Shown one piece after another: positions 1,502 to 48,552 of a DNA stretch of 50,340 nt; positions within the stretch are counted from its first letter, which is position 1, and every line of letters begins with the position of its first letter. Both the position numbers and the translations under genes were made by a program. The notes below the pieces were generated by a model. It saw nothing but the letters and a program-made list of their open reading frames with translations. It ran no database searches and was not told where the DNA came from. Source of the DNA: Emiliania huxleyi CCMP1516. Lineage: Eukaryota. Where the stretch lies: assembly GCF_000372725.1 (NCBI RefSeq), contig NW_005201231.1, forward strand, positions 244,679 through 295,018. Direction: 5' to 3'.

Positions 1502-2568
1502 ATGCCGAAGCGCGCGGCTCCTGCCCTCGACAGACAGCTACCCTCGATGGTCGTGCACGGACGCTACTTACGGCAGCCCGACAAGGGCTCGTACGTGAGG
1601 CCGGCGGTCCCGAGCGGCGAAGCCGTGTCGGTGAGCGAGACTGGCTTCGACGCCGGCGGCCTTCTTGACTGGAGCGTCACTCGCGTCGCCGCCGGCAGGC
1701 TGAGCCGGCAGGACGTGAAGGACCGCGCGCTGCTGATGATCTCCGGCGAGACCATCGCACGGCTGAAGGCGGACGCCGCCAGCCTCCCGTTGCGACAGCC
1801 GCTCGAGCAGAGCAGTCTCCGAGGCGGCAACTTTGCGGAGAACATCTTTGTGAGCGCGGCGGCCGGCGCCGACTCGCCCTGTCCCGACTCGCTCTGCGTG
1901 GGCGACGTGCTCGCCGTCGTCGCGCCGCGCGGCAGCAAGCGCCGCTGCGCGTCGAGTGCCGCAGCCGAGTCGCCAACCCTGCGGCTGCAGGTGAGCTCGC
2001 CTCGCCGGCCGTGCTCCAAGATCGACGCGCGCTTCGGGCGCACGTGGAACGGCGGCGGGGTCCGAGCTTTGTGCGCGCGGACCGGTCTGTCGGGCTGGTT
2101 CGTGCGCGTGCTCGCTCCGGGAGAGCTGCGCGACGGCGACGGGCTTGGAGCCACGCGCCTGCCGTCGGCCTGCGGACGGCGTCTCTTCACGGTAGCAGTT
2201 TGCGTGAGCAGGCGACGAGCTGCGCGTCGTCGAACGGCCGCACCCGCAGTGGAGCCTCGGCCGCGTCTCTCGGCTGCTCTACGGCATGGAGGGCGCCTGC
2301 GACCCGCCAGGCGGCTACGCGCTGCCCACGACGCGCGAGCAGGCGAGCCGAGCAGCACATGGAGACAACGAGAGAGAAAGGTCCGCTAGCGGTCGCCCGG
2401 TCGTCCCGCGCGCGCGAGCAGGTGCTGAGCCGGTGGCAAGGGACACTCGGCGAGCTGCGAGAGCTCGCGGGCATGCCGGAGCTCGCTCGGTACGAATATC
2501 GTCGCGAGCTCGAGCGGCTGTCCGCCGCTGTCGACGAGGAGCCGCGGCGGTCGTGCGCTGTGATGTAA
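1502..2568 (+). CDS. MOSC-domain (YiiM-like) protein, ~303 aa; predicted GC-AG introns 2136-2211 and 2343-2421
   Basis: MOSC motifs NFAENIFV, LCVGDVL, LQVSSPRRPCSKI, TGLSGWFVRVLAPGELRDGDEL, ERPHPQWSL join in frame after removing the two introns. Confidence 0.85.
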
Positions 2569-3016
2569 TTGGGGCTGTGCTTTTCCGCGCCTCGAATCAG
2601 TGCATATTGGCCATTGGTGCCACTCGAGTCTCGACCACCTTAAACTTGTACTTAGTCCGTTAGAGTGCCTCCCCCCTCTTCTTGTCGCTCGCGGCCGCGG
2701 CGCGGCAGTGTTTAAAATTAAAACGTAGCTCGTAGGATTTGTTAAGCGTTTCGCAAAAATTAATTGGATTAAGAGCACACACGGGCCGATCACGGGGGTG
2801 CACGCGCCGAAAACGACCTCTGGCTCTATAATGGTTAATGCTGCGTGCTGTTCGCAGTGACTCTCGGAGACCCTCACACGCCGACGGAGAGGGCGGAGGG
2901 GTGGGCGAGAACCGCCGCCGCGCCGAACGTCTCGTTGTTTATAAAATGAACTCGGGGGCACGTCTCGTTGTTTTGCGATCAGTGACTCGAAAAACACACT
3001 CACACGCTGGAGACAA

Positions 3017-3036
3017 GGGTGGTGTTTAGAAACACC
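3017..3036 (-). promoter_or_regulatory. Histone mRNA 3' stem-loop
   Basis: Minus strand reads GGTGTT-TCTA-AACACC-ACCC about 20 nt after the H2B stop: 6-bp stem, 4-nt loop and ACCC flank, as in the canonical element. Confidence 0.8.
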
Positions 3037-3055
3037 GGGGGGGGTGGCGCGCCGC

Positions 3056-3415
3056 TTAGGCGTTCGACGTGTACTTGGTGACGGCCTTGGTGCCCTCCGA
3101 GACGGCGTGCTTGGCGAGCTCGCCGGGGAGGATGAGGCGGACGGCGGTCTGGATCTCGCGCGACGAGAGGGTGCCCTTCTTGTTGTAGCGCACGAGCTTG
3201 CCCGCCTCGACGGCGATGCGCTCGAACGCGTCGTTGATGAACGAGTTCATGATGGACATGGCCTTGGAGGAGATGCCCGTGTCGGGGTGCACCTGCTTGA
3301 GCACCTTGTAGATGTAGGACGAGTACGACTCGACCCGCTTCTTCTTGCGCTTCTTCTCGCCGCCCGAGGGCTTCTTGGCGGACTTCTTGGCGGGGGTCTT
3401 CTTGGCGGGCGGCAT
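3056..3415 (-). CDS. H2B: Histone H2B, intronless
   Basis: [40 protein letters not shown]...[30 protein letters not shown]. Confidence 0.99.
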
Positions 3416-6668: not shown

Positions 6669-9600
6669 ATGCCGGCCTCGCAAGGCCCACTGGTCTTTGC
6701 TCCGCAGCGCGGCGTCCCAAATCCCTCGGCGGTGCGCGAGCTGAAATCCCTCTCGTCCACACATTACGCGCTGTGGCTGCACGGCGGACTTCCTCTCGCC
6801 GAGTACCTGACCCGCAACCGCCTCGCGTTGACGTCCCCACTCGAGCTTCCGGCCCTGCGGGTGTCTGTCACGCCGCTGCCCGCTGCAAGGCCCGCCCCTC
6901 GGGAGGGCCGAGGAATCGAGCTTGGGAGCCGCACGCCCGTCACGGGCGCGGCGCCTCGCTTCGAGGCGCGATCGACCGGCGGAGAGTGGGCGAATGTGCA
7001 GCCGCGCCAGTTGTCGCAGCAGCTCAGCTCTGTGCCTTCGGCCTCATCCCAGGACGCACCAACCACCTCCGCGCCGGCGTGGGGCCAGTCGCAGCAGCAC
7101 CAGTCGTTCCAGAGCTTTGCCCTCGCGCCGCTGCAGGAGCCGCCGCCGCCAGGACGCAGGGGCGAGAGTGAGGCGGGAGGAGGCGCCACCGCCGCTGCTT
7201 CGGCGGAGGCCACGCCGTGGCCGAGGACCCTTTTACCGACGGGCGAGCGAGCGTCCGCCCCGGCCGCTTCCGCCCCTGCTGCTTCCCTCCCGGCTGCGTC
7301 CGCATCTCTTGCCGCCGCCGCCTCGCCTGCCGCCGCCTCGCCGCGTCCGGGCGTGTACTACTTCAAGAAGCAGCGCCGCGCGAGCTTCGGCGAGGCGCAC
7401 CCGCAGGCTACCTGCCGCGCGCCCCCTCGCGACGCGTCCGTCCAGCATACGCGAGGCGTTGCAGGGACGGATTCACATCGATGGCTCGTAGGAGGGCCCG
7501 CGCGAACTCGTGCTGCGGATGGAGCTCGCATACGCAAGCCTCTCGCCGCTCCAGCGCCGCCCCTTCGAGGAGGCCGCGTCGGCCGCTGCGGCCGCCCCGA
7601 CCGCCTCGGCATTCACTTCTGGTGAGACGGACTCGGACTGCCACGCCGCCGCCGCTGCCGCTGCTGCATCTGCTGCCGCTGCACCTGCTGCTGCCGCGGC
7701 TGCTGCAACCGCTGCTGCCGCCGCTGCCGCCGCTGCTGCCGCCGCTGCCTTTGCACCCGCTGGTGATGCCGCCGCGACTACCTCCGCCGAGGCTGGCCGC
7801 GTGGCCGCGCGGGGCTTCATTGATTGCTCATTGATCAGTTAGTTGATGGTCAATTGATAGGCTGGCCGCGCCTCTGCTCGATCGCAGCAGCAACCGTCGC
7901 AGCAGCAACCGTCGCAGCAGCGAACGTCGCAGCAGCAACGGTCGCAGCCGCCGCCGCAGCCGCCGCCGCAGCCGCCCTCGTCTCAGTCCTCTCTTTGCGG
8001 CTGGATGGGCCTGCCGAGCGAGCCTTCGCAAGGGACGGCGGCGGGCGTGCGGCCGCCGCCGGCCAGCGCGAGCCAAGGCGGCGCTCGCTCGGCAGCGGCG
8101 ACTCCGCGGCGCGAGTGGGGTGGCAGCAAGGTGACCAAGCGGCGGCTGGAGGAGGAGGGGGCGCTCCTCGCGCGGGGCTTGCTGGCCTAGAAGCGGAACA
8201 CGGGCTCTCGTACTCCAACCAGCGCTCGAGAGGACACGTACTCAACTGTACTCGGCCGAATTCCGCCGTACTCATATTGTATCTGTGTCGCCCGTATTCA
8301 CGCAGCACTCTGAAGACACTGCACAAGGCCGTCCTCCCGAGGCTGGCGTACTCAGCACGTAGGTCTGCGGGCGATGGAGGCGCTCATACAGCCGGCAACT
8401 TCCACGCAGCTCGACTGTCTCAAGGCGGCGGACGGCGCCGTCCTCGTCTGGCTGTACGAGGACGGCTCGACCTCGGCCAGGCCGAGCCTGCGCCAGAACG
8501 ACTCGCAGCAGCAGGCGGCCGCGGTCATCGGCGCGTCGCTCCTCGTCCAGAGCCGAGCCGCCGCCGGCGGAGGAGGCGGGGTATGCCATGTTGCCTCGGC
8601 CGGTTGCGAGCCGTGTCTCTCCACGAGGGGCATTGTGAGGACAGGCGGGGGACAGGCGTTCCTGCACCTCGACTTGCGCGGCGCAGAAGGCGCGGGCGGG
8701 AGAGGCGCACTCCGCCGCCTCCTCCTGCGCAAGAAGGGAGTCGACGGAGGCGGCGGAGGCGGCGGAGGCGGCGGAGGCGGGGGGCATGGCGGCGGAGGCG
8801 GGGGGCATGGCGGCGGAGGCGGGGGGCATGGCGGCGGAGGCGGGGGGCATGGCGGCGGAGGCGGAGGCGGGGCGGTGTCGCTGGTCTGCCCCAATGCACA
8901 GGTGGTGCTGCTCCCCATATCTCCCCATATCTCCCCATATCTCCCCATATCTCGAGCCCCAATGTACAGGTGGTGCTGCGCTCCGCCCTCTTCACTCTCG
9001 ATGGAGTGAGTTCGGCGCTCGAGATCGAGACGGGCCTGTGGGTCGTCTTGCGGGCGGCTCGCGCGGCTCGAGGCTGTGAACGGCGCCTCTTCACACTCTC
9101 CAGCCGTGAGTAGGTCGACCCGGTGCTGATGGCGTGGCTCGAGGCTGTGAACGGCGCCTCTTCACACTCTCCAGCCGTGAGTAGGTCGACCCGGTGCTGA
9201 TGGCGTGGCTCGAGGCTGTGAACGGCGCCTCTTCACACTCTCCAGCCGTGAGTAGGTCGACCCGGTGCTGATGGCGTGGCTCGAGGCTGTGAACGGCGCC
9301 TCTTCACACTCTCCAGCCGTGAGCAGGTCGACCCGGTGCTGATGGCGTGGCTCGAGGCTGTGAACGGCGCCTCTTCACACTCTCCAGCCGTGAGCAGGTC
9401 GACCCGGTGCTGATGGCGTGGCTCGCCGAGCCCGACTCCACCGAGGCGGAGCTGGCGCTGCCCGCGCTCTACAGCCGCTACATGGTCGGCGCTGGCGCGG
9501 GGGGGGCGGCGGCGGCGGGCCACGCAGCCCTCGGTGCGGAGCCTGGTGGCGCCGAGCAGCTCGAGGCCGACTTGCGCGCGTGCTGGGCCCTGTGCGGGCA

Positions 9601-10830
9601 GCTGTGCGGCGTGCTCAAGGCGTCTCATGGGCCGGCGGGCGTGGCTGTGATGCAGCGCGAGCTCACCGTGGCGCAGGTGCTCACCGACATGGAGCTGCAC
9701 GGACTTCCCCTCCACCTCCCGACCCTGCGCCGCCCGCTCGGCGAGGTCCAGCGGCGGTGCGAGGCGCTGTCGCGCGAGGCAGAGGCGCTGCTTGGAGGAC
9801 CGCTCAACCTCGGCTCGCCGCAGCAGGTCTCCGAGGCGCTCTACGCCCGGCTCACTCTCTGCTGACTAGTTGGCTCGTGCCCATAGGCTCGCCGCAGCAG
9901 GTCTCCGAGGCGCTCTACGCCCGGCTCACTCTCTGCTGACTAGTTGGCTCGTGCCCATAGGCTCGCCGCAGCAGGTCTCCGAGGCGCTCTACGCCCGGCT
10001 CACTCTCTGCTGACTAGTTGGCTCGTGCCCATAGGCTCGCCGCAGCAGGTCTCCGAGGCGCTCTACGCCCGGCTCACTCTCTGCTGACTAGTTGGTTCGT
10101 GCCCATAGGCTCGCCGCAACAGGTCTCCGAGGCGCTCTACGCCCGGCTGCGCCTGCCGCCGCCGCCCGTTCCGGCGGGGGCGGCGGCGAGGTCCGGGCAC
10201 GGCTCCACCAATGAGGCCCACCTCGCCAGGCTCGAGATATGGGGAGATATGGGGAGATAGGGGGAGATGTGGCACGGCTCCACCAATGAGGCCACCCTCG
10301 CCAGGCTCGAGATATGGGGAGATAGGGGGAGATAGGGGGAGATGTGGCACGGCTCCACCAATGAGGCCCACCTCGCCAGGCTCGAGATATGGGGAGATAG
10401 GGGGAGATAGGGGGAGATGTGGCACGGCTCCACCAATGAGGCCCACCTCGCCAGGCTCGAGATATGGGGAGATAGGGGGAGATAGGGGGAGATGTGGCAC
10501 GGCTCCACCAATGAGGCCCCTCGCCAGGCTGGCCGCCTCGCGGCCTGACTGCGCGCTGCCCGCCATCGTGCTCGAGTACCGCCACCTCCGCAAGGCGGCC
10601 GCACTGAGCTAGCTAGTGTACACCCATGCATCACCCGACTGATGAAGTGACGAATCGCAAGGCGACCGACGCCTTCCTCGAGCCCCTCCTCGCCAAGGCG
10701 GTCTCCCCACACACATCTCCTCATATCTCCCCATATCTCCCCATATCTCGAGCTTCTCCTCGCCAAGGCGGTGCCCGACTGCCGTCCAGCCGGCGCCGGC
10801 GCCGGCGAGGGCGGGGGCGACGGCGAGGGC

Positions 10831-10862
<32 letters not shown>

Positions 10863-12378
10863 GGGCGAGGGCGAGGGCGAGGGCGAGGAGGGCGCGGGGC
10901 GAGCCGCGGACGCGCGCATCTACACGAGCTGGCAGCTGCTCGCCACCGGCACCGGCCGCGTCGCCTCGCGCAACCCGAACGTGCAGCAGGTGCCTCGCGC
11001 GTCGCCGGAGCCGGTTCCCGGCGCTGCGAGCGGAGGGGCGAGCGAGGTGCGCGTGTGCGTGCGGTCCGCCATGCGACGGCTCAGTCGCCAGGCATGTCTC
11101 ACTCAACCACTCACCCACAGGTGCGCGTGTGCGTGCGGTCCGCCTTTGTCGCCTCGGCAGGGGCTGTCCTCGTCTCTGCAGACTACCGGCGACAAGAGAC
11201 GTGCTTTGCCCATCGCCCCTCCTCTCCCGGTCTCCGAGCCTCCCCGTAGCCGTGCCGCAGGCAGCTGGAGATGCGCCTGCTCGCCGCCTTCTCCGAGGCT
11301 CGAGATATGGGAGATATGGGGGTATATGGGGAGATGCGCCTGCTCGCCGCCTTCTCCGAGGCCGGCTCGCATGCCGCGCGCGCGCTGAGGGCGGCGGCGT
11401 CTCTTCACACCTGCGCCGGCCGGTGAGCAGGACCCGCTCCTGGCCCGGATGCTCCACTCGAACGAGGACCTCTTCCGCTCGATCGCCGCCGCCTTCTTCA
11501 AGCGAGAGGTCGGCGCCGTCTCCGCCGCGGAGCGCGAGAAGACCAAGCAGCTCTGCTACGCTCTCTGCTACGGGCTCGGGCCAGAGCAGCTCGGAGGCCA
11601 CCTCAAGATCAGCACGCCGGAGGCGCGGCGGCTCAAGGAGGACTTCCTTCGCTGCTTCGGCGGCATGGGGGCGCCGCCGTGGAGCACGCCACGGCGCGAG
11701 CGGCGCCTCGTCACGCGCGCAGCTGTGAGCAGGCATGCGCGCGTTCATGGAGAAGGTCAAGGCGCGCGCGCGGAGGTGCGGCAGGACGACGACCATCGGG
11801 GGGCGCATCCGGCAGCTCGCAGACATCAACTCGCGCGACTTCACCGCCCGTGCGCGAGCCGAGCGCCAGGCGAGCGGCTCTCGGTGGCCAAAGCACTTGG
11901 CCACAGGCGCCCAGCTGAACAACGGAGCGAGGCGCAACTGTTCAGGCGATCAACTCGACGATCCAGGGCTCCGCGGCAGACATCGCCAAGGAGGCGATGA
12001 TCCGCTGCTGCGAGGAGCTGTCTGCCCACAACCTCCCCGCGCGGCTGATTGCGCAGATCCACGACGAGCTGTTGCTCGAGGTGCGTGAATGAAGAACAAT
12101 GTGTACCGATAATTGATGATGATGATAATAATTACGACGAGCTGCTCGAGGTGCTCCCCATCTCTCCTCATCTCTCCCCATATCTCCCCATATCTCCCCG
12201 TATCTCGCTCCTGCTCGAGGTGCGTGACGAGGCGCTCGCGCAGACCGTCACGAGCGTCCGACGCGCCATGGAGGAGATGCAGGGCGTGTTCGCCGCCTTC
12301 CCGCTGCCGCGGCTGCCTGCCGAGGTGCGGGTCGGTCGCGACTGGGCGCACATGCGCCCCTTTGACGAGCAAGCGTGA
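6669..12378 (+). CDS. Family A DNA polymerase (Pol theta/Pol nu-like, no helicase domain seen); 15 predicted introns: 7407-7491, 7792-7860, 8177-8362, 8902-8969, 9006-9397, 9813-10108, 10230-10527, 10595-10661, 10698-10767, 11047-11120, 11189-11260, 11298-11430, 11663-11732, 11870-11945, 12081-12219
   Basis: The spliced product contains NLGSPQQVSEALY, TGTGRVASRNPNVQQVPR, motif A ADYRQLEMRLLA, motif B REKTKQLCYALCYG, RQAINSTIQGSAADIAK and motif C QIHDELLLEV. The 5' exon structure is less certain than the catalytic part. Confidence 0.9.
9067..9421 (+). repeat. Five tandem 71-bp copies of an intron acceptor plus exon start
   Basis: Unit CTCGAGGCTGTGAACGG...GATGGCGTGG starts at 9067, 9138, 9209, 9280 and 9351. 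Confidence 0.95.
9813..10108 (+). repeat. Four tandem 74-bp units (40 nt exon copy + 34 nt filler) forming one predicted intron
   Basis: GCTCGCCGCAGCAGG...GCCCATAG x4 = 296 nt, followed by the true exon copy. Confidence 0.95.
10230..10527 (+). repeat. Four tandem ~75-bp units (GGGGAGATAT filler + upstream exon copy) forming one predicted intron
   Basis: GCTCGAGATATGGGGAG...CCTCGCCAG x4 = 298 nt. Confidence 0.95.
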
Positions 12379-13107
12379 GGCCGAGGGTAGCTCTTGAGGG
12401 AAAGAGGGACACCGCCCGGACTTGCGCGCCCCTTGCGGGTCATGGCGCCGGCGCGCTTGAGAGGGTCTCTCCTCTGGAGCGCGCGTGGCGGGACAGGGCT
12501 CGCGAAGGCGCTGGAGCGTGGCGGATGGCGGCGGGGTACTGTACGGTTGCATACACGTATGGGCGGACTCGCCGGATTCACACACGCTCTGCTCGCGTCC
12601 GTGTCGAGACGAGCGCGTCGTCCGTGACCAGTCTCCGTATCTACATACATACGCAGAGAAATTTGCGCCCGGTCCCCGGAGAGTCTATTCACACACCACG
12701 CAGACCGCCACCAGCGGAAACAACGGTACCTTTAAGGTACGCAGACAGGCGACAGGGCAGGTGGTGGTGGTGGTCTGGTGGTGGTGTAAAATAAGGGAGA
12801 CGGCGCGTTTGGCCGCGAACGGAGCCTTGCTAGACGAGTAGGCCATGCTCTGGCGGCGGCTCGCGAGCGGCGCTGCACGCGCGGTACAAGCCCGGCCGGG
12901 GCGCTGGGAGCCTATTCACAGAGGGCCCAACGGGGATTTCTCGCTCGAGATTTTTCGCTTCGCTGCGCGGCCTGGGAATTGGTAGGTAGGTGGGGGGCAC
13001 GGAGCCTGGCGGTTGGCGCCCGCGCCGCGGGGTTTTTTTTCGGAGCCGCCCGCCGCTCTCTCCTCCTCTCGCCGCCGCTCTCCTCCTCTCGCTGGCCTCT
13101 CTCCTCG

Positions 13108-16100
13108 ATGGCCGGCATCTCCGCCGATGACGAGCTCCTTCACGCCGCCGCCACACCCGACGATGAGCTCCGTGCGGCCACCGAGGCACGGGCGCCGCCC
13201 GCCAACGAGCACAACTCGTCGGATGAGGGCGTCACCGACGACCACGGCTCCGATGATGAAGGTAGCTACGACGTTTCGCCTGGCGCGTGGATCGTGCTCC
13301 ACAGCCTACAGGGGAAGCCTGCACTCAACGGCATGGTCGGCTTTGCCCTGGAAGCCACCAGCGGTGCCGGTGGCGAGAGCCGGTGGCTGGTCCAGCTCAT
13401 GCCCTCCTGCGAGCGTCTCAAGGTGAAGCCCGCGAACTTTCAAGTGGTCGCCCCCGCCGATTGGAAGCAGGGGTCCGAGCCCGAAAGGGCGGCCGCCGAG
13501 CGCTTCGCGCGATGCATCCTCGAGGCCTTCGCCGACAGCAGCGGCCCGGCGAAGCTAGCCTTTCCGATTTGCGAGAGTCACCACAACAAATCGCGCAGCG
13601 TCGTCCACGGGGTGGCTCGCGACATGCCGGACCTCTTCTACGAGACGCGGTCGACGGGGCCCAAGGATAACCGGCAGCTGGTCGTGGAGCGGATCGAGAA
13701 GCCGCCGCTCGCGCTGCCGCCACCGAGCGACGCTGCGGGCGCCTCCGACGACCTGTCCCTCTCCAAGTTTGACGAGCTCTGCTTGCTGCTCAACGCCATG
13801 GATGCGGTGCCGAACGAGACGGGGGCAATAGAAAAGCGCAAGCGCATGAGCGCAAGGTTCTGGCGCGGCCTGGCGCCTTCGGGACGCGCGCGGCCGCGGC
13901 ATGCGAGACCCGGCCTCTTCGCCGTCATGCGTCTGCTGGTGCCTCACCACGACTCTCGGCGGTATGGCCTCTCCACGGAGAGGCTGGCCGCCACGTTTGC
14001 GGAGGGGCTGGGGATCGGCAAGCCGCGCGCCAAGGGGATCGGCAAGGCGTGGATGCTCGACGAGAGCGTGGCGCTCGGAGTCACGGGCGACGTCTCGCTG
14101 GTGCTGGAGGCGCTCGCAGTGGAGCGGATCGACCCGCGGCGCGATACGATCCTCACCGTCGGCGCCGTCAACAAGGCTCTCGACGCGATGCAGAATGCCG
14201 GCAAGGTTGATCTGCTGCTGGGCCTGGCGGCGCGGGTCGCCAAGCCGCGCGAGATCAAGTGGCTGACGCGCATTGTGCTGCGTGACCTGCGGATTGGCTC
14301 GCGCCCGAGCAATCCCGTGCCGCAGAAGGGACGCCCCTTCGCGCGTACTCAGTAAGTGATATCTTCCACACACGTACCCCAGCCCCTCTGTCCAAGCTAG
14401 GCGAGTACCCCAAGCTCGTCATGGACGGCCTCTGCCGCGCCAAGGGGCGGCTCGGCAAGCCCTCCGACCAGAGCGCGGGCTCGCCGCCCATGATGTACGC
14501 GACGCTGCGCTACCAGAACAACTTGGAGCGCGTGTGCGAGGCGGCGGAGCGCGGCGTGCTTCCGCGAGCCTACCCGCCACCAGTGCAGCTCGGCATACAC
14601 GTAAGAGCGCAGCTGAGCGTGCCGTGCCCCAACCTCGATGCCGCCGCGCGGCAGCTCGGCACCAACGACGTCTTCATCGAGACGAAGTTCGATGGGTTCC
14701 GATTTCAGTTGCACTGGCACGGGCGCGACAGGCAAATGCGCTGTTTCTACCGCAGCGGCGTCGAGTGCACGGCCGACGTCGGCGACCTGCTCCCGGCGGT
14801 GGAGCTGGCGCTTGGCGGCGATCCCGAGCAGGTGCTGCGCCGCGACGCTACCGACGAGGCGACGCGCTTGCGTTTCACGTGGCTCGAAAAGGCGTGGGCG
14901 AAGGTCACGCCGGAGCAGCGCGCGGCTTTCACGCACAACACGGCGGACCTCGTGCTCGACGGCGAACTGCTCGTATACGACGAGTCGATGACACCAAAGG
15001 GCCTCTACGACGAGCTCGGCACGCGATCCGGCATCGCCGCCTTTGGCACCAACTTTTGGGTGCGGCAGACGGCCGACGGCAAGCCGTCAGGCTACTCGCG
15101 GGAGGACGCGCGCCGCCACTACCTTGTCAAGGTGTTTGACGTGCTGCGGTGCGGCAACACTTCCGAGAGGCTTCCGAGACGCTTCCGAGACACCTCCGAG
15201 ACACTTCCGAGACACCTCCGCAGGTACAACGGCGAGGAGATTCTGCGCCGGCCGCTGCACGAGCGGCGCGAGCTGCTCGAGTCGGGCCGCTGCTTCATCG
15301 CCCTACCGCACTACTTGGAGCTGACGCAGAGCGATCGCGTCGACCTGGCCTCGCCGGAGGGACCGCTGCAGGCCGCCTTTGACGAGGCGCGGGCGGCGCA
15401 GGCCGAGGGCTTGATGGTCAAGGCGGCGCACCAGCCTTACGTGCCAAACGGCCGCACCAATGTGCTCAAGTGTAAGGTCGAGTTCATACCTGGCCTCGGC
15501 GACACCGTCACACTGCTGCTGCTGGGGGCGCGTGTGCCGCGAACGCTCGGCGCCGGCGACGAGGCGAGCATGCTGGTGGAGTTCGCCATTGGCGCGCGCG
15601 AGTCGGATGCGGCAGCTGCGCCACTTGTGTGGCTCTTCAACACTTCGGCGCTGCCTTGGCGCGGCTCCTCGCTGACCCAGCCGATGCTCAAGCGGCTCTA
15701 CTTATGCCTGACTGAGGGCTGGGGGCACCGGCCCGCCCTAATGAACCGGCTAGGCGTGGACGAGCCGCCACCGGCATGGATGCGGCAGTGCCCCACAAGC
15801 ACGATGGCGCGGCCCCATTGGGTGCTGCTGGATCCCGAAAGCGCGCCCGTCGTCGAGGTGATGGGCTCGCGCTTCTTGCGGCGGTACAACCAGGACCAGG
15901 ACGCGTCGTCCAACCGGTCGCTCCCGTGGACGATCCGCTTCCCGCGCGTGGCGAGGTGGTTCGAGGAGACGGACGGCGTGGTCGTGGACACCGTCGCGAG
16001 CTTCCGCGCCAAGGCGGTCGCCGCGTTCAGCTCGAGCGGCCCGCAGGACGACGACGACGACGGCGCAGAGGAGGAGGCGCCCGCCGAGCCGCTGGTTCCG

Positions 16101-16592
16101 CTGAAGCCGCTCACGTGGCACCTCGCCCCACCATCGGTGCCCGTCGAGATGCCCGAGACCAGTCGGTGGCAGGCGGAGCTGCGCGACGCCGCGCCGCCCA
16201 CCCCCGCCTCGTCCAGCTCGTCCATGCCGTCGATGCGTTCGCCCAGAGGGCCGGCCGCGAGGCGATCCGGCTACCCCGGGGACGCAGCGAGCAAGGCCAA
16301 GCAGCAGCCCTTCACCGAGGTGCCGCCAACCACTACGCTGCTCGACGTGGACGAGGCGACGAGGCAGCTGCACAAGGCTAAGACGGCGATCGTGCAGTGC
16401 TCCGACGGCACGCTGTACTACTTGCGGGGCATCGACGCGGGCGGGGCTGTCGTGCAGCCTCTGCACGACGGCGGCGAGCGGACACACCCTCTCTCGAGAC
16501 TCCGACAGCTCACCGGCTACGACAGCGACGAAGTCGGGCTGTTGGATGACCCGCGAGTGAGCCTTGCAAAGCGCCAACGCAGAGGGGCGTGA
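13108..16592 (+). CDS. ATP-dependent DNA ligase with N-terminal SH3/KOW-like and R3H-like domains; predicted introns ~14345-14400 and 15149-15223
   Basis: Motif I IETKFDGFR, III LVLDGEL, IIIa VFDVL, IV EGLMVK, V LKCKVEFIPGLGD, VI IRFPRV; ligase DNA-binding-domain features (MRLLVP, GDVS, LTVGAVNKALD, EIKWLTRIVLRDL). Confidence 0.92.
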
Positions 16593-19018: not shown

Positions 19019-20147
19019 GTGAGTCTATCAGTAAGCGCCGGGTTAGCGTGGGTTCCACCGGGTTAGTGCTCCACTAACCCAGCACGGGTCAGCACGGGTT
19101 AGAACGGGTTACCATAACCCGACGCTAACCCGGCACTAACCCGGCACTAACCCATCCTAACGTATGCCCCCGAGCAGCGCGGGTTAGCGCCGGGTTAGTC
19201 TCGGGTTAGTCTCGGGTTAGTCTCGGGTTAGGTTTGGGTTAGAGCTCTACGGCTCGTTCCGCCCCTCTCTCGTGCGTTCACTCACTCGCCACACCACAAA
19301 AACAACTCTCTCCACACCACAGGCAGCGTCGGTCGCCTTGGCACAGGTGGCGGCCACAGCAGCCGCGTGCAGCGGCGCGCGAGCGCGCTCGGCCTGGTTG
19401 CTCTCTTCGGCAGCCGATGCCGCCTGGGCAGCCACTGCCGCGGCAGCCTTGGCGCTCGCCGCCGCAAAGATTTGAGCCGACGAAGGCCGGGGACGAAACT
19501 CAGCCGGTCGCTGCCCGTTGGAGGATGAACAGACGCAGCGCTACGAGCTGGCACGCTCGTGCCAAAGGCAAAGTTGCTCGTGCGATGTGCCGCCGCTTCC
19601 CTCAAGTGACGATCGTACTGGTGCTTCGATACACCGAGCGGAAAGAGCATGCCGCACGAGTCTTTGGCGCACGTGTAGCCGACGGCCTTAGCAAGCGCCT
19701 TGGACCCGTCCGAACTGCGCACGCGGGTGTTCTTCTCAATGAGCAGCTTGGCATCCACGGCCTTCTGCAGCCAAGGCTCCATCGCGGAGGTCGGCTCGGG
19801 TGCCCGCCGCAGCCGTTTCATACACACCGTGCCCTCGCAGTCCGAATCGTGGCGCCCGCCTTATTTGGTGGGCGTAACGGTCGCGGGACGGACCAAAATC
19901 ACCCTCGAGGTCTTGCGGTTCATCTCGCCAACCAGCTCTAACCCGGGGTGCGCTGCACTAACCCGGCCCTAACCCACCCCTAACCCGGCGCAGACCCATG
20001 CTGACGTATGCCCCCCAGTCGCACGGGTTAGTGCCGGGTTAGTGCCGGGTTAGTGCCGGGTTATGGTAACCCATTCTGACCCGTGCTAACCCGTGCCGGG
20101 TTAGTGAGCACTAACCCGCGCTAACCCGCGCTTACTGATAGACTCAC
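19019..20147. mobile_element. Non-autonomous TIR element with ~220-bp TAACCC-rich TIRs and 6-bp TSD
   Basis: Termini GTGAGTCTATCAGTAAGCGC / GCGCTTACTGATAGACTCAC; arms 19019-19246 and 19934-20147; TTCATG at 19013-19018 and 20148-20153; internal minus-strand ORF with C-x4-C...H-x6-H. Confidence 0.85.
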
Positions 20148-20273: not shown

Positions 20274-20670
20274 CAAAGCAAAGGCATGGCGAAGACAAAG
20301 ACATAGCTTAGCAAAGACAAAGACATCAAAGACATACATAGCTTAGCTTAGCAAAGACAAAGCTACATAGCTTAGCTTAGCAAAGACAAAGACAAAGACA
20401 TACATAGCGTAGCTTAGCAAAGACATACACAGCTTAGCAAAGACAAAGACATACAGCTTAGTAGCTTAGCAAAGACAAAGACATACATAGCTAGCTTAGC
20501 AAAGACAAAGACATACATAGCTTAGCAAAGACATACATAGCTTAGTAGCAAAGACAAAGACATACATAGCTTAGCTTAGCAAGCTTAGCAAAGACATCAT
20601 AGCAGCAAAGACATCATAGGAGACACATCATAGGTTCATAGCCTAGGAGACATCATAGGAGACATCATAG
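20274..20670. repeat. AT-rich degenerate satellite (GCTTA / GCAAAGACAAAGACATACATA units grading into GACATCATAGGA)
   Basis: Directly visible tandem repetition. Confidence 0.9.
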
Positions 20671-20958: not shown

Positions 20959-21291
20959 CTAGGAGGGTTGGGCTAGGAGGGTTGGGCTAGGAGGGTTGGG
21001 CTAGGAGGGTTGGGCTAGGAGGGTTGGGCTAGGAGGGTTGGGCTAGGAGGGTTGGGCTAGGAGGGTTGGGCTAGGAGGGTTGGGCTAGGAGGGTTGGGCT
21101 AGGAGGGTTGGGCTAGGAGGGTTGGGCTAGGAGGGTTGGGCTAGGAGGGTTGGGCTAGGAGGGTTGGGCTAGGAGGGTTGGGCTAGGAGGGTTGGGCTAG
21201 GAGGGTTGGGCTAGGAGGGTTGGGCTAGGAGGGTTGGGCTAGGAGGGTTGGGCTAGGAGGGTTGGGCTAGGAGGGTTGGGCTAGGAGGGTT
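20959..21291. repeat. Perfect 14-bp tandem repeat (CTAGGAGGGTTGGG), ~24 copies
   Basis: Directly visible; abuts the stop codon at 21292. Confidence 0.98.
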
Positions 21292-28030: not shown

Positions 28031-29670
28031 TCAGCTGAACTTGACCGTCGCCGCTCCGGGCGCCTAGAAAAGGACGGTGCGGACGATAAGGAAGAAGCGT
28101 GTGTGAAGAGGTGTCCCCCCGCCGCGCCGCCTCGCGCGCCGCGGCGAGCAGCGCGTCCAGCACCGGCTGTGAGGCGTGGTGGAAGACGGCGAGGTGGAAG
28201 GGAAAACTGCCCGTGTGCTCGTCCTGCCGTGGCCAGCGGCAGGCGTGGGCAGGAGAGGGCAGAAGGGAGTGGTGGCCCCGTGCGTGCGCGTCCTGCTGCG
28301 CAGCGCTCGGCTCGCGCGCTATCAGACTCAGCGCCGCCTCCTCGCCTGCCGCACCTAGCGACCACGCAATCTGGGGTGAGCTCGCCCAACCGACGAGGAC
28401 GCCCCGTCCACCTCCTCGCCCGCCGCGCCCAACCGCAGCAGCTGCGGCAGCGTCCAGCTCCCGTCGCCGCGGGGCGGGTGCGCCTTGGAGAGCAGGCCCG
28501 CCACTTACAAGCGCTGTTCAGCTACTATTACTGCTACTACTGTCATTATTGTGCGCCTCGGAGAGCAGGGCCGCCACTTATTGGAATCGCTGTGATTATT
28601 CTGCTACTGTTCCTATTCCCATTGTGCGCCTCGGAGAGCAGGGCCGCCACCGCAGGCACTCGGCCACCCGCGCGCCTCGCCTCGCCCCCGCCGGCGCCCG
28701 CCTGGCCGCTGTCGCCGTGGCTCGCGTAGTGCAGAGGGAGGGAGAACGTGCGGTCCTCGGTCGAGGCGGCGGCGGGCAGGGCCGAGAGCCTACGTGCTGA
28801 ATACGCCGACCTCAGGGCGGGAGGACGGTATTGTGCAGTGTGTTCAGAGCACCGCGTGAATACAACGGAGACGAATACAGTGAATCCGTATTCCGCTTCT
28901 AGGGCCGAGAGCAGCGCGCGCACGACGGCGGTGGGCGAGGCGTGGAGTGCGGCGAGGTGGAGGGGCAGCTTCCCGTCCTTCCGCGGCGCGGCGGCGCTCT
29001 GAGGCGCGGACTGCAGCAACAGCTTCACCGCGTGCACGCTCGCGCGCGCAGACGCGGCGGCGAGGTGCAGCGGCGTGCTGCCGTCGTGCGTCCTCGCGGC
29101 GGCGGAGGTAGTGTCCGCCTCTAGCAGCCGCTGCAGCAGGTCGAGCGGCGCCGCGTGGTTCGCCGCCGCACAGTGCAGCGGTAGCCTCGCCCCTTTCCCG
29201 GCAGACCTCGCCGCCGCCGGGTGCGCCTCGAGCAGAGCGCTACACACCCCGGCGCTCGCGCCGGCCACTGCAGCGACATGCAACGGCAGAAGGCGGCCGG
29301 GACCCCAGGTGCGCGGCGCGGCGGCGTTCGCCTGGACGATGGCCCGCACCGTCGCCTCCGACGCCCGCCGCTGCAGCGCGACGTGCAGCAACAGCCGGCC
29401 CGCCGCATCGGGCTCGGCCGCCTCTGACGGAGCAGCGCGCAGGCGAGTCGCAATCGCGCGCGCAGGTGCGCGGTGCTCGAGCAACACGTCGCACGGCACG
29501 GCGGCTTGCCACGCGCTCGACGACAGCACGTTCCGCGCGGCGAGGCGCCAGGCTCGTGCGACGCGGCGGACCGCCAGCACCGTGCCGATCGGCAGAAGAG
29601 CGATGACGGCCTCCAGCGGGTCGCCCTCGAGAAGCACACGGTCATTAATTGCCTCAATCGAAGCCTCCAT
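28031..29670 (-). CDS. F-box-like / ankyrin-repeat protein; predicted introns 28790-28912, 28484-28629, 28346-28419, 28224-28292, 28064-28139
   Basis: N-terminal LEAVIALLP...VRRVARAWR (F-box-like); ankyrin motifs LLHVAL, LPLHVAA, LPLHCAA, TPLHLAA, LPLHLAA, LPLHYA, FPFHLA; frame is maintained through the predicted junctions. Confidence 0.75.
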
Positions 29671-34845: not shown

Positions 34846-34885
34846 GGGGGGAGGGCAGTTTTTTCGTTAAATTCTTTTCCTCGCG

Positions 34886-36307
34886 ATGTCAGCCCCGCGG
34901 CGCCGCTCGCGCCGCCTCGCCTCCGCCGCCGCCGCCGCACACTGCCCCCTCACCGACCTGCCCCTTGAGCTTCTCGCGCGCGTCATCTCCCGCTGCGACC
35001 CCGCCGACATCGCTCGCGTCGCGGCCGTCTCGCTGCTCTTCCACGCCTCGCTTGCGCTGGAGGGCATCCGCTTGCGCCTGCAAGAGGCCGGCTTCGAGCC
35101 GCCGGCGCAGCTAGAGGGCGAGAGCTGCGCCGTGCAGTGGCTGTGCTACTCGGCCTTGCTGCGCGAGTCCAACCCGCCGGCGAGGCTGGCGGCGGGCCTT
35201 CGGCACAGCGTCTTCATCGACGGCGAGGGGCGGCTCTCGTCGTGCGGCGCGGCAGCGGAGGGAGAGGAGGACGAGGAGGACGAGGAGGACGAGTTTCCAG
35301 GCCTTCTCGGTCACGGCGATGGCGTGCTGCAGCTGAAGACGCCGACCCGCCTCCCATCGCTAATTGGAGGCGAGCGCGCGATTGGTGTGGAGGCGTCACG
35401 ATACTTCAGCCTCGCTCTCTCCGCGGACGGCGCCGTTTGGTCCTGGGGCTGCGGTGAGCTGGGACACGGCGACCAGGAGGATCAGTGGCAGCCAAAGAAG
35501 ATCGAGGCCTTGGCGGGGCAGCGGGCCATCGCTGTGTCGGCTGGACTTAACCACAGCCTCGCCCTCACCGCCGACGGCTCCGTCTGGAGCTGGGGCGATG
35601 GACACTTTGGCCGGTTGGGCCACGGTGACGAGGAGAACCAGCTGCTGCCGAAGAAGATCGAGGCTTTGGCTGGCCAGCGCGTCGTCGCTGTGTCGGCTGG
35701 AGGGGGGCACAGCCTCGCCATCACCGCCGACGGCATTGTCTGGAGCTGGGGCTATGGATACTTGGGCCGGTTGGGCCACGGCGACCAGCAGAACCAGCTG
35801 CTGCCCAAGAAGGTTGAGGCCTTTGCTGCCCAGCGTGTCGTCGCAGTGTCGGCTGAAGGCGGGCACAGCATCGCCATCACCGCCGACGGCGCCGTCTGGA
35901 GCTGGGGCGTTGGCTACTTTGGCCGGCTGGGCCACGGCGACGAGCAGCACCAGCTGCTGCCCAAGAAGATCGAGGCTTTGGCTGGCCAGCGCGTCATCGC
36001 TGTGTCTACTGGAGGGGCTCACAACCTTGCCATCACCGCCGACGGAGCCGTCTGGAGCTGGGGCTATGGAGCCTCTGGCAATCTGGGCCACGGAGACGGG
36101 CAGGGCCAGCTGCTGCCCAAGAAGGTCGAGGCCTTTGCTGGCCAGCGCGTCGTCGCTGTGTCGGCAGGGGAAGACCACAGCCTCGCCCTCGCCGCCGACG
36201 GCGCCGTCTTTACCTGGGGCGGGGGCGAGAGCAGCTGCCTAGGCCATGGAGAGGACCTGTCCAACCAGCTGCAGCCCAAGAAGATCGAGGTCTGGTCGCA
36301 GGAGTGA
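34886..36307 (+). CDS. F-box-like + 7 RCC1-repeat protein, paralog A, intronless
   Basis: LTDLPLELLARVI (F-box-like); 52-aa repeats SAGxxHSLAITADGAVWSWGxGxxGRLGHGD...LLPKKIEA. Confidence 0.93.
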   Translation: MSAPRRRSRRLASAAAAAHCPLTDLPLELLARVISRCDPADIARVAAVSLLFHASLALEGIRLRLQEAGFEPPAQLEGESCAVQWLCYSALLRESNPPARLAAGLRHSVFIDGEGRLSSCGAAAEGEEDEEDEEDEFPGLLGHGDGVLQLKTPTRLPSLIGGERAIGVEASRYFSLALSADGAVWSWGCGELGHGDQEDQWQPKKIEALAGQRAIAVSAGLNHSLALTADGSVWSWGDGHFGRLGHGDEENQLLPKKIEALAGQRVVAVSAGGGHSLAITADGIVWSWGYGYLGRLGHGDQQNQLLPKKVEAFAAQRVVAVSAEGGHSIAITADGAVWSWGVGYFGRLGHGDEQHQLLPKKIEALAGQRVIAVSTGGAHNLAITADGAVWSWGYGASGNLGHGDGQGQLLPKKVEAFAGQRVVAVSAGEDHSLALAADGAVFTWGGGESSCLGHGEDLSNQLQPKKIEVWSQE

Positions 36308-37339
36308 GAGGGGGGCAAGGGGCGCGTGGCTGATAGGAGTACGACCGACTCGGGAGAGGCCAAGATTCGGATGGGGTGGGAGGGCTGGCCAAGCGGAAGC
36401 GCTAGTTCCCTAGAGCTACCGATCTGAGTCGCGCTAAAAAATTCTTTTTCTGCGATGAAGAAAGAAAGAAAACAGACAGGCCAAGGGAGGGATGGGAGGA
36501 GCCAGTCAGTCAGTCAGTCTTACACACCTCCAAGCAAGGAGGACGGGCCCACACGCACACACACGCTGCACACGATTGGCTCGGGAGCCGACACGAGGCA
36601 CGCTGTCACCGGCCGTAGCACTGGGTCCGGACTGCTGGACGCACAACACACAGCTCACAGGACAGCTCACGAGGTGGCGCTGTATAGTGGGGTTCTCAGG
36701 GACCGACACGGGAGAAGAAGGTGGAGCACAGGGACGGGGACACAGAACTCACGAACTGATATCCCACCCCGCGCCGGGGGCGGTGGCGCGCGCGAGCGCC
36801 GGGGTATTTGGACCCGCAGTCTGGCAGGCGCCAGGCCACAGATCCGCCGGCAGAGCCTTCAAGCCGCATCCGCGATCCGCGCCGGCTCTCAGAAGAGATC
36901 CGGCGCGGTGCTGACCGCGTCCTCGCAGCGGACCACCGAGTTCACGATGATGTCCGAGGAGAAGCGGTGCAGCTGCGGCACGATGCGGTAGTCGCACAAT
37001 GCCGCATTGCGGTTTGCGGCACTCCTGCTGCAACGCGCGCGCGGCGGTGAGGAGAGCGCGAGCCCTTGAGCTGCTGGAGTCAGTCCATCGCCCGCGCATG
37101 CGCGCTGGCCTTGAGGTGGTTCCACCAACAACTGGCCCAGGGGTTGTGACCCTGCGCAAAGCGCAGGAATTTGCCGAGCGCGCCCTTGGTCCTAGGGCCC
37201 CGCTCGGGGAGTTGAAGGCGGCCGCCGTGGTGCGCGTAAGGGTTCCGGAGAACCTCTTGGCACCACGCGAGTGGCGGCCGCCACTCCGACGCGCCGCCGG
37301 TGGCGCCGCGCAGAGCGCGCAACACCACCAGCTCGTGAT

Positions 37340-37500
37340 AAAAAGAAAGAAAGAAAGAAAACACACAACCCAAGGGAGGGATGGGAGAACGGCACGCCGC
37401 CACCACACAGGGATTTTAAGGAGAGGAGAGTGTGATGCGCTAGCCGTCGCCCACCCTGGGGAGTAGTCTGCCTCTTCGTATCTCTTTTCGCAGTCTCTCG
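37340..37500 (-). mobile_element. Retroposon 3' end with (TTTC)n tail; shorter copy at ~36456-36500
   Basis: Homologous to 6455-6582 and 22834-22930; 5' boundary unclear. Confidence 0.7.
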
Positions 37501-37663
37501 CCGCTTCTCGCTGCAACCTTCATGCCACCTCGCGGCCGTCCCACTCTCGTCGTTCTCTCCCTTGTCACTTCCTCTGATAGAATTTAGACAAAACAACTCT
37601 CTCTCACAGCAGACAGGCTTCTGATAGAATAGGAAGGCGCAGCGCGGAATTCTTTTCCTCGCG

Positions 37664-39106
37664 ATGTCTGCCCCGCGGCGCCGCTCGCGCCGCCTCGCCG
37701 CCACCGCCGCCCCCTCGCCAATCACGCCGCCGCCCTATCGCCTCCTCGATCTCCCCACGGACCTCCTTGTGCGCGCCGTCTCTCGCTGCGACCCCGCCGA
37801 CATCGCTCGCGTCGCGGCCGTCTCGCTGCTCTTCAACGCTTCTCTCGCGCTGGAGGGCATCCGCTTGTGGGCGCAAGAGCGCGGCTTCGAGCTGCCGGCG
37901 CAGCCAGAGGGCGAGAGCTGCGCCGTGCGGTGGCTGTGCTTCTATGCCTTGCTGCGCGAGGCCAACCCGCCGGCGAGGCTGGCGGCGGGCCTTCGGCACA
38001 GCGTCTTCATCGACGGCGAGGGGCGGCTCTCGTCGTGCGGCGCGGCAGCGGAGGGAGAGGAGGACGAGGAGGACTGGCAGGAGTTTCCAGGCCTTCTCGG
38101 CCACGGCGAGGGCGTGCTGCAGCTTAAGACGCCGACCCGCCTCCCATCGCTAATTGGAGGCGAACGCGCGATTGGTGTGGCGGCGTCATTTTACTTCAGC
38201 CTCGCTCTCTCCGCGCACGGCGCCCTTTGGTCCTGGGGCTGTGGCTACTCTGGCCAGCTGGGCCACGGCGACACGCAGCACCAGCTGCTGCCCAAGAAGA
38301 TCGAGGCCTTTGCTGGCCAGCGCGTCATCGCTGTGTCGGCTGGAGGCGGCCACAGCATCGCCATCACCGCCGACGGTGCCGTGTGGAGCTGGGGCAGTGG
38401 AGGCGATGGCAAGTTGGGCCACGGCGACCTGCAGAACCAGCTGCTGCCGAAGAAGATCGAGGCCTTTGCTGGCCAGCGCGTCATCGCTGTGTCGGCTGGA
38501 GGCGGCCACAGTCTCGCCATCACCGCCGACGGAGCCGTCTGGAGCTGGGGCATGGGTAGCAGTGGCCGGTTGGGCCACGGCGACGGGCAGGAGCAGCTGC
38601 TGCCCAAGAAGATCGAGGCTTTGGCTGGGCAGCGCGTCGTCGCTGTCTCAGCTGGAGCTTACCACAGCATCGCCCGCACCGCCGACGGCGCTGTCTTGAC
38701 CTGGGGCAATGGAGGCGTTGGCAGGCTGGGCCACGGCGACCAGCAGAACCAACTGCTGCCGAAGAAGATCGAGGCCTTGGCTGACTTGCGCGTCGTCGCT
38801 GTGTCGGCTGGACAGTACCACAGCCTCGCCATCACCGCCGACGGCACCGTCTGGAGCTGGGGCTATGGAGACTATGGCACGTCGGGCCACGGCGACGAGC
38901 AGGACCAGCTGCTGCCCAAGAAGATCGAGGCCTTTGCTGACTTGCGCGTCGTCGCTGTGTCGGCTGGAGCGTACCACAGCCTCGCCATTACCGCCGACGG
39001 CGCCGTCTTTACCTGGGGCAAGGGCGAGAGCGGCTGCCTGGGCCACGGAGAGGACCTGTCGAACCAGCTGCTGCCCAAGAAGATCGAGGTGTGGTCGCAG
39101 GAGTGA
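37664..39106 (+). CDS. F-box-like + 7 RCC1-repeat protein, paralog B, intronless
   Basis: Same architecture as paralog A; DNA homology spans ~34870-36420 vs ~37648-39211. Confidence 0.93.
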   Translation: MSAPRRRSRRLAATAAPSPITPPPYRLLDLPTDLLVRAVSRCDPADIARVAAVSLLFNASLALEGIRLWAQERGFELPAQPEGESCAVRWLCFYALLREANPPARLAAGLRHSVFIDGEGRLSSCGAAAEGEEDEEDWQEFPGLLGHGEGVLQLKTPTRLPSLIGGERAIGVAASFYFSLALSAHGALWSWGCGYSGQLGHGDTQHQLLPKKIEAFAGQRVIAVSAGGGHSIAITADGAVWSWGSGGDGKLGHGDLQNQLLPKKIEAFAGQRVIAVSAGGGHSLAITADGAVWSWGMGSSGRLGHGDGQEQLLPKKIEALAGQRVVAVSAGAYHSIARTADGAVLTWGNGGVGRLGHGDQQNQLLPKKIEALADLRVVAVSAGQYHSLAITADGTVWSWGYGDYGTSGHGDEQDQLLPKKIEAFADLRVVAVSAGAYHSLAITADGAVFTWGKGESGCLGHGEDLSNQLLPKKIEVWSQE

Positions 39107-42606: not shown

Positions 42607-42684
42607 CGTCTCGGTGCCCAGCGAATTCTTTTTCCCGGTCGCCAATTCTTTTTCTCCCTTCACAGCCGGCTCGAGGGCGCTTGC

Positions 42685-42942
42685 GCCGGCCGCCGCGGCC
42701 GCCACCCATGACCAAGGAGAAGCTCCGCGCCAACCTGCGTGGCCTCAAGGCCAGGGTCATCGACACGTCGGCGCTCATCGCGCGCCACGTCGAGCTCAAG
42801 GCGCAGCTTGAGGCGGCAGTCGCCGAGCGGCGCCGCATGGGCGAGGAGAAGGCGGCGGCGGAGAGCACGGCGGCGCTGCGCTCGGCGGCGGAGGCCGCGG
42901 TCAAGCAGCAGCTCGAGGCGGCGCGCGGCGAGGTCCAGCAGC
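42685..42942 (+). pseudogene. Truncated 258-bp copy of the 5' end of the gene starting at 45552
   Basis: Nearly identical to 45529-45786 (MTKEKLRANLRGLK...). Confidence 0.85.
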
Positions 42943-45454: not shown

Positions 45455-45551
45455 GCTGTGAATAGCAAATTCGATTTTTTTTCTCAACACCCGGCTCGCG
45501 GCGGCCTCGGGCCGGCTTTGCCCGTGCTGCCGGCCGCCGCGGCCGCCACCC

Positions 45552-48500: not shown

Positions 48501-48552
48501 GTGCAAGGCGGCGAGCCCCGCCTGCGCGTCTGCTGCCCCGCCATACCCGTGA
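45552..48552 (+). CDS. Multi-exon coiled-coil / low-complexity protein (AAKSP, EEAREEA, AAAGTSAS repeats); structure unresolved
   Basis: Successive plus-strand ORFs with helical composition, separated by intron-like segments; coding minisatellites at ~47140-47255, 47431-47630 and 48244-48410. Confidence 0.5.

Follow-up and report, generated by a model that had tools for sequence, protein, structure and literature searches.

Long junction duplications and filler at the introns of an Emiliania huxleyi polymerase gene, and their possible origin in break repair

The origin of introns is a long-standing question, and besides introners few mechanisms are known with many clear cases. We analysed a stretch of 50,340 nt from Emiliania huxleyi CCMP1516 (contig NW_005201231.1, positions 244,679 to 295,018, ~65% GC; hereafter the window, numbered from its first letter), in which a family-A DNA polymerase gene is interrupted by 15 introns. 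Most of these introns consist of a copy of the adjoining exon sequence plus filler, in units often close to 70 nt, which an initial annotation made from the letters had proposed to be the product of an intron-generating system. The public sequencing runs containing this stretch are cultures and marine metagenomes.

Results

The modelled part of the polymerase gene (7702..12378) lies on the plus strand, as do all its introns, and comprises 877 codons and a stop once the 15 introns are removed; RNA pieces extend it in the 5' direction beyond the model, to about 6665. The product is theta/nu-like: it matches PF00476, its closest matches in the PDB are Pol theta and, in second place, nu, and in a tree of 35 rows it sits in an 11-member clade (98/91) that includes a Prymnesium parvum protein. 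Taking out 15 segments between 7792 and 12219, all with GY-AG ends (Y being C or T), yields a single open frame with the three polymerase motifs intact, whereas the unspliced form has stops in its frames and broken conserved motifs. The proposal that splicing restores the coding sequence even inside catalytic motifs was borne out, with one intron (11189) lying within motif A. Eleven donors are GC and four GT, in agreement with the 56-65% of GC donors reported for Emiliania huxleyi (PMC4028052). With GC/GT-AG ends, a restored frame and removal in RNA, these are real spliceosomal introns of the U2 type. A protein search with exon 9398-9811 gave no match, and one with exon 11431-11661 gave a single unspliced read-through protein.

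Removal was followed in RNA contigs, not raw reads, from four runs of three studies, and joins were counted among the matches listed. Direct joins lead from 8175 to 8362, 11661 to 11732, 11866 to 11943 and 12071 to 12211. In three RNA contigs the letters between 11044 and 11429 number exactly 105, as the model predicts once introns 11047, 11189 and 11298 are removed. Other contig alignments begin at 7859 and 9397 or end at 8573 and 9823, with extra letters beyond, and one contig continues for 260 letters past 9823, consistent with the removal of introns 9813, 10230, 10595 and 10698. The predicted junctions are thus supported in RNA, four directly, three by exact spacing and eight indirectly. 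Upstream of the model, the alignment of RNA contigs is interrupted at 7342 and taken up again at 7490, leaving 92 letters unplaced, and the segment 7343-7491 probably holds another ~70-nt intron.

A clear junction duplication is present in 10 of the 15 introns, in line with the initial annotation, which had described it for most of them. All nine of its examples exist, none more than a few bases from the positions it gave, and its list lacked six further introns (8177-8362, 8576-8644, 9042-9397, 11189-11260, 11663-11732 and 11870-11945). Among the single modules, the GC-AG intron 7792..7860 (69 nt) has a 12-nt duplication and AT-rich filler, and an RNA alignment begins at 7859 with 72 more letters upstream. 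The GC-AG intron 8576..8644 (69 nt) has an 8-nt duplication, and an RNA alignment stops at 8573. Intron 8902..8969 (68 nt, GT-AG) has a 24-nt duplication (1 mismatch) that straddles the junction, with a filler of 10-mer satellite in C-rich sense. A 9-nt exact duplication and a unique filler with short palindromes make up intron 10595..10661 (67 nt, GC-AG). Intron 10698..10767 (70 nt, GC-AG), also present in metagenome locus L124, carries a duplication of 17 nt exact, or 26 nt with mismatches, and satellite filler. RNA support for these last three is indirect. Intron 11047..11120 (74 nt, GT-AG) shows a perfect 26-nt duplication, and here the 105-nt RNA spacing equals the model. The duplication is decayed at most (p 0.028) in the motif A intron 11189..11260 (72 nt, GC-AG), and intron 11663..11732 (70 nt, GC-AG) holds, beside hairpin-family filler, ~40 nt copied from the start of the next exon and since decayed (direct RNA join in X12 and X15). 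Two GC-AG introns lack a significant duplication: 8177..8362 (186 nt), which consists of a recurrent filler family (direct join in X11 and X13), and 11870..11945 (76 nt; 7-nt overlap, p 0.056; direct join in X15).

The longer introns are composite. Intron 9042..9397 (356 nt, GT-AG), at whose end RNA alignments begin (9397), consists of a 72-nt unit, in which the start of the next exon is repeated in decayed form, and four 71-nt tandem units. Intron 9813..10108 (296 nt, 4 x 74) repeats a unit of ~40 nt of exon copy and 34 nt of filler; the X13 RNA contig departs from the genome at 9823, and loop contigs occur in DNA runs. In intron 10230..10527 (298 nt, ~4 x 75; RNA support indirect) the unit is ~34 nt of exon copy with satellite in G-rich sense. 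These three are tandem arrays of one module each, whereas the introns of 133, 139 and 146 nt (the last in the ankyrin gene described below) are stacks of different modules. Intron 11298..11430 (133 nt) combines, back to back, a 63-nt satellite module (11298-11360, with a 33-nt duplication) and a 70-nt hairpin-family intron; intron 12081..12219 (139 nt, just after motif C, 16-nt duplication, direct join in X15) combines a 70-nt AT-rich module, in which X1 has a 29-nt deletion, and a 69-nt satellite module. The initial annotation had described the long introns as near multiples of the module size, which is not supported as put, since tandem amplification (296, 298, 356 nt) and stacking (133, 139, 146 nt) are two separate causes.

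Two kinds of filler recur. A family of 110-180 nt is found in the window at 8177-8362, 28790-28912 and near 50175, and in metagenome loci L020, L036, L044, L063 and L077; its 5' end is often itself hit by satellite insertions, and it could be one of the introner families listed for E. huxleyi. A hairpin-like intron 3' half, with an internal inverted repeat seen by eye, occurs at 2170-2211, 9073-9397, 11390-11430, 11700-11732, 46350-46389 and 48545-48586, in gene sense throughout the window (10 motif matches against 0.44 expected).

Over the 15 introns the junctions overlap exactly by 10.1 nt on average, against 3.6 nt in 210 cross-paired junctions. We also compared intron boundaries by anchored alignment, with two tests per intron and 250 control exon sites each: similarity reached p<=0.016 in nine of the 15 introns and in the inner module of 11298, and at p<0.05 the count rose to 12 of the 15. 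It was not significant against these control sites for introns 8177 and 11870 and the outer ends of 11298. These comparisons address the warning that proto-splice sites alone can mimic short duplications (bioRxiv 051292). Of the 43 direct repeats in 43,320 nt of the window (the sequence outside protein-repeat genes and intergenic satellites), 19 had a spacing of 60-79 nt, against 0-2 per shuffle (20 shuffles). The duplications straddle the splice site in introns 8902, 10595, 10698 and 12081. They range from perfect (26 of 26, 33 of 33) down to ~70% alike and form an age series.

The pattern is genome-wide. A scan of marine metagenome contigs for the 10-mer satellite returned at least 128 stretches, kept as 126 loci; this sample favours short contigs rich in satellite and consists of DNA alone. 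The satellite itself gave no match in viral contigs and only four unrelated matches in prokaryote genomes. Of 223 satellite tracts with 60-nt flanks, 208 were left after duplicate removal, and 160 of these were bracketed by a direct repeat (score >=10), against 46 of 1500 swapped-flank controls. In 140 modules the repeat abuts the tract. Their duplications measure 10-42 nt (median 24; the scan is blind to duplications below about 10 nt), 75 are perfect, and mismatches amount to 125 in 3498 nt; no helical periodicity of 8-12 nt was found in duplication length. The period ranges from 35 to 178 nt (median 71.5) and is even modulo 3 (47/44/49). As had been proposed, the duplicate supplies splice sites: in-register GY..AG occurs in 109 of the 140 modules, against 44% for random targets. 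Among the 108 modules with the tightest joints, microhomology of at least 3 nt was present at 22 joints on the left and 30 on the right, where simulations gave 4.5%, with no side bias in mean length (1.62 and 1.76 nt, p 0.41).

Fillers are of several kinds, namely the 10-mer satellite, telomeric repeats, AT-rich DNA and intron families that recur, and both joints show short microhomology. An unbiased repeat scan of 200 kb, run without five loci that were duplicates or unrelated, yielded 318 repeats, where shuffles gave 7-14 each, and the fillers included telomeric, other-satellite and unique AT-rich DNA; among the other fillers (n=116), 40 were spaced 60-79 nt. Telomeric tracts were accompanied by direct repeats (score >=15) in 47 of 191 cases, against 36 of 800.

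The loci split into a group 1 of 81, made of two contig sets of which one includes the window's own locus, and a group 2 of 44, which probably represents another organism. Telomeric tracts occur in 36 of the 44 group 2 loci, in two of the 81 group 1 loci and not at all in the window. In group 1, 24 of 92 modules lack splice sites, and where sites are present the satellite is C-rich in sense in 47 modules and G-rich in 28. Modules free of splice sites and filler in both senses indicate that the event likely takes place at the DNA level.

Module size is a mode and not a constant, with ~70 nt in the window's organism and ~85 nt in the second (median periods of 68.5 and 85 nt for groups 1 and 2). 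The claim that all modules measure 67-76 nt failed, as modules of 63 and 186 nt occur in the polymerase gene and of 79, 123 and about 110 nt elsewhere, and so did that of a constant total size, given the range of 35-178 nt over the 140 modules. In the window's organism, compensation between duplication and filler lies mainly in spliceable modules: in group 1, rho between the two is -0.53 in the 47 modules with a C-sense splice site (period quartiles 67-75.5) and only -0.12 in the 24 without sites, and the slope over group 1 non-satellite modules up to 110 nt is -1.21 (n=49, with 13 longer ones excluded). Window introns with little duplication still measure 69-76 nt. An intron-size preference of the organism, acting as a filter, fits these data better than a mechanistic ruler, and the initial suggestion of size selection behind the ~70-nt mode was upheld to that extent.

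Unit number at the 9042 array is polymorphic: two of four DNA runs (X2 and X5) bridge it with a single unit (284-nt skip), and the other two break at the array. The exact copy numbers of the arrays may be misassembled. At the 9813 array, the loop contig of the 74-nt unit reaches a depth of 813 against 8-15 in X5 (~70x the flanks) and of 176 against about 57 in X1, which hints at very large arrays, although depth is not a copy number.

Modules also interrupt unrelated genes of the window, and we therefore treat the identity of the theta/nu-like host gene as a coincidence. The MOSC gene (plus strand; PF03473) has two predicted introns within 2136..2421, at 2136-2211 (76 nt, 11-nt duplication) and 2343-2421 (79 nt, 12-nt duplication). 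On the minus strand, a gene with ankyrin Pfam matches has five predicted introns within 28064..28912, of 123, 146 (2 x 73), 74, 69 (GA donor) and 67 nt, with duplications of 12, 27, 16, 13 and 5 nt in this order. In both genes, removal of the predicted introns restores the frame. The pattern described for a MOSC and an F-box-ankyrin gene was thus recovered, without the F-box, as Pfam detects ankyrin repeats only. The predicted intron with the GA donor and the 13-nt duplication lies at 28224-28292.

We then asked of the metagenome modules whether they lie within exons. The coding model used was congruent at all 15 true junctions, a partly circular check, as its non-coding side was trained on window introns. 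Downstream sequence was coding-like in 56 of 124 strand-site candidates, of which 27 are coding upstream in the same frame and 26 non-coding upstream. From their sequence, about half look new within continuous exons and half look like additions to older introns. For the polymerase gene, a related open frame of 1031 amino acids on a 30.6-kb contig (P0166) runs through all 15 positions without insertion, another on 12.1 kb (P0167) crosses 12 positions, all it covers, and a third, exon-bounded one (P0008) crosses nine. Their genomic origin is judged from the size of the carrying contig or from abrupt loss of homology. Metagenome loci L123 and L124 carry the same introns as the window polymerase.

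Discussion

Our data show that the feature is real. The origin we consider probable is end-joining of staggered breaks with filler, followed by selection for splicing, with no classic introner involved. Repaired breaks, filtered for spliceable size, are likely a large source of new introns.

Two nicks on opposite strands, 10-42 nt apart, would leave 3' overhangs of the same sequence. An end would then be extended with filler, either copied from abundant repeats and other introns or produced by slippage, and the ends would be joined through 1-5 nt of microhomology in the manner of polymerase theta, with fill-in duplicating the target. Theta-type joining is here drawn from what is generally known of templated inserts. 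A G|GC or AG|GT within the duplicate would provide the donor and often the acceptor in register, as seen in the anatomy of the modules, so that the message is restored when exactly one period is cut out; the organism's use of GC donors would help. Exonic modules would survive when near 70 nt, as the statistics above support. Flanking direct repeats would drive tandem amplification and further events would stack at the same junction, both of which are visible in the arrays and stacked introns, and the duplicates would decay with age. Such a staggered break with 3' overhangs and filler explains at once the duplications that straddle splice sites, fillers of any kind and in both senses, modules without sites, and microhomology on both sides. 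We give little weight to a farther-reaching version, in which haptophytes would use a break-filling theta-like or telomerase-like enzyme copying intron RNA or satellite templates, so that introns seed introns without a transposon and this becomes the main source of introns and of GC donors.

Several observations weigh against this origin. When the 140 modules are pooled, duplication and filler compensate only weakly (rho -0.14, p 0.095), and the variance test in group 1 gave p 0.066. Eight of the 15 polymerase junctions rest on indirect RNA support. Among the testable candidates, 26 of 56 adjoin an older intron, and a cruder exon-internal test found frame congruence in 39 of 130 cases against 374 of 2000 under the null (it is low-powered, recovering 10 of the 15 true junctions). 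A module that sits beside an older intron creates no new position. Intron 12081 lies at position 826/0, precisely where homology to the P0003 cluster of relatives ends; the position is possibly shared, being either old or a parallel gain. No empty, intron-free allele was present among the matches listed from four DNA runs, nor in L123 or L124, and the polymerase introns look fixed; gain is therefore suggested by distant relatives only, whose open frames cross the positions. At 35-52% identity, these relatives may have lost introns instead. The recurrent filler families could be mobile elements themselves. Finally, the evidence names no enzyme for the route that we infer. The staggered break, which the initial annotation had put forward, is nonetheless the best fit.

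The geometry would be the same if target-primed reverse transcription of the type used by elements without long terminal repeats inserted short RNA-derived pieces, such as repeat tails or excised intron RNA, with long and variable duplication. Duplication length does vary and filler families do recur, the hairpin and 186/123-nt families lying in gene sense in the window, and the 653 introners listed for E. huxleyi fall into five families, two averaging 70 nt, with the target-site duplication (TSD) undetermined in four and absent in one (PMC9860276). We nevertheless find this explanation doubtful, as the 140 fillers have no shared element body behind the satellite and no poly(A) was seen in them, many fillers are unique AT-rich DNA, and microhomology is symmetric (p 0.41), whereas priming predicts a bias. 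A renewal of the mirage type, in which slippage duplicates the exon boundary of an old intron and later collapse removes it with no intron gained, would suit the mirage-like arrays at 9042, 9813 and 10230 with their variable copy number, the candidates abutting an older intron and the possibly shared position 826/0. It appears improbable for the system as a whole: the duplications straddling splice sites at 8902, 10595, 10698 and 12081 would need two events, in the 27 exon-internal candidates the satellite takes up precisely the gap and no trace of an older intron is left, and related open frames cross the positions.

A telomerase or telomerase-like enzyme could heal staggered breaks and supply the fillers, an origin already suggested for the interstitial telomeric sequences of mammals. 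Group 2 does have telomeric fillers with target duplications, and a G-rich tract is directly followed by a C-rich one 14 times and the reverse order never occurs, but selection for a pyrimidine-rich 3' end could yield the same polarity, the joints show no priming-side bias (13 and 18, p 0.59), and telomeric filler is all but confined to group 2. We judge this very improbable as a general account; it may explain a subclass at most, in group 2. Head-to-head tracts of this order lie inside group 2 genes at L006, L009, L016, L026, L039, L047, L050, L070, L081 and L128; an enrichment of telomerase end phase at such joints, apparent by eye, disappeared when counted (8 of 34). The notion that the whole pattern is an artefact, with duplications made in assembly or splicing imitated by template switching between direct repeats in cDNA, starts from the fact that all read evidence comes from contigs and that direct repeats can give false introns in cDNA, as one report (PMC8240250) is said to show. 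It is largely refuted and hardly credible, since the modules are present in four independent DNA runs and a metagenome contig, all 15 introns have GY-AG ends in register, introns with only a 2-7 nt overlap are removed as well, and the retained form has stops and broken motifs.

Compared with published systems, for which we draw on parts of the cited papers, intron gain by break repair (a model set out in PMC3020277) is here unusual in the length of the duplications and in scale. As in the neointrons of Daphnia pulex, an insert lies between direct repeats of adjacent exon sequence, with AT-rich fillers, repeated events per site and an attribution to staggered breaks (PMC4202315); in our data the repeats exceed chance and the joints show microhomology. 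The Daphnia repeats measure 4-12 bp (33 cases among 90 introns), whereas those found here measure 10-42 nt with a median of about 24 and accompany roughly three in four satellite tracts, and the fillers include satellite, telomeric and intron-family sequence; the Daphnia gains are also polymorphic (PMC4202315), in contrast to the lack of an empty allele among the matches listed here. Introners likewise recruit splice sites from the target duplication, in either orientation and with GC donors, but their reported TSDs are 3-9 bp, fixed per class, and their members share an element (PMC9860276, PMC12130899, PMC11282704, bioRxiv 10.1101/2020.10.14.339549). In the satellite class the duplications vary continuously over 10-42 nt, in keeping with the initial view that this is no introner with a fixed TSD, and no element shared end to end was found in satellite, telomeric or AT-rich fillers; the fillers are mixed, and the two recurrent families exist, some of which may belong to the listed E. 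huxleyi families.

Short interstitial telomeric sequences of mammals also place a simple repeat at a break, with in-register microhomology and duplications ascribed to staggered breaks, yet target duplication was the sole change in three of 66 horse loci, whereas here it is the rule, most fillers are non-telomeric, and the parts of that paper at hand describe no making of introns (PMC7215372). The tandem exon-intron boundary copies of amphioxus mirages, unstable in number and harmless to splicing, resemble arrays 9042, 9813 and 10230, three of the 15 introns; the unit here differs in being one intron-sized module derived from a duplication-plus-filler precursor, and single modules with foreign filler are commoner (PMC3087553). 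In fission yeast, tandem genomic duplication turns a proto-splice site in a duplicated exon piece into an intron, as here, but those cases are rare and without foreign filler, which here forms most of the intron (PMC3629103). Replitrons were considered and set aside, as most families have no TSD and the parts of the source at hand report no case in Emiliania (PMC10288648). A long-read paper on E. huxleyi mentions, in the parts at hand, only wrong intron boundaries (PMC10290126). In the full-text literature searched, which did not include the 2013 E. huxleyi genome paper, we found no description of long target duplications at haptophyte introns. That genome paper reportedly notes repeats of 10-11 bp in introns; part of the pattern may already be described in its supplement.

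Well over a hundred sites in 200 kb of sampled DNA bear the footprint of long duplication, filler, microhomology, size filter, decay, stacking and amplification. Its hosts are cultured and sequenced bloom-forming algae, which makes intron gain by break repair testable at genome scale. Recruitment of donors from GC-rich exon sequence is a possible reason for the GC-donor majority, and gene models and assemblies of these algae will err at such junctions.

Other features of the window

An ATP-dependent DNA ligase gene with an R3H-like stretch (12790-16592, plus strand) lies directly downstream of the polymerase gene. It has candidate introns near 14330-14400, 14588-14653 and 15149-15223, and its modelled frame is broken at the first of them (12 stops). 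Two intron-poor F-box-RCC1 paralogs and an ankyrin-kinase-RING gene occupy 34871-39103 (plus strand) and 40306-42744 (minus strand), and we noticed no modules in their long frames. At 19019-20147, 20276-20670 and 20959-21291, telomere-like 11-mers make up an inverted repeat pair (200 nt), accompanied by a complex AT-rich satellite and a perfect 14-mer array; together they are possibly a non-autonomous element. An assembly gap of 310 N spans 48959-49268. A sequence on the minus strand at about 2950-3300 resembles, by eye, a histone H2B gene, and the start of one gene is copied over 258 nt at 99.6% identity (42685-42942 and 45529-45786), the copy being a truncated duplicate.

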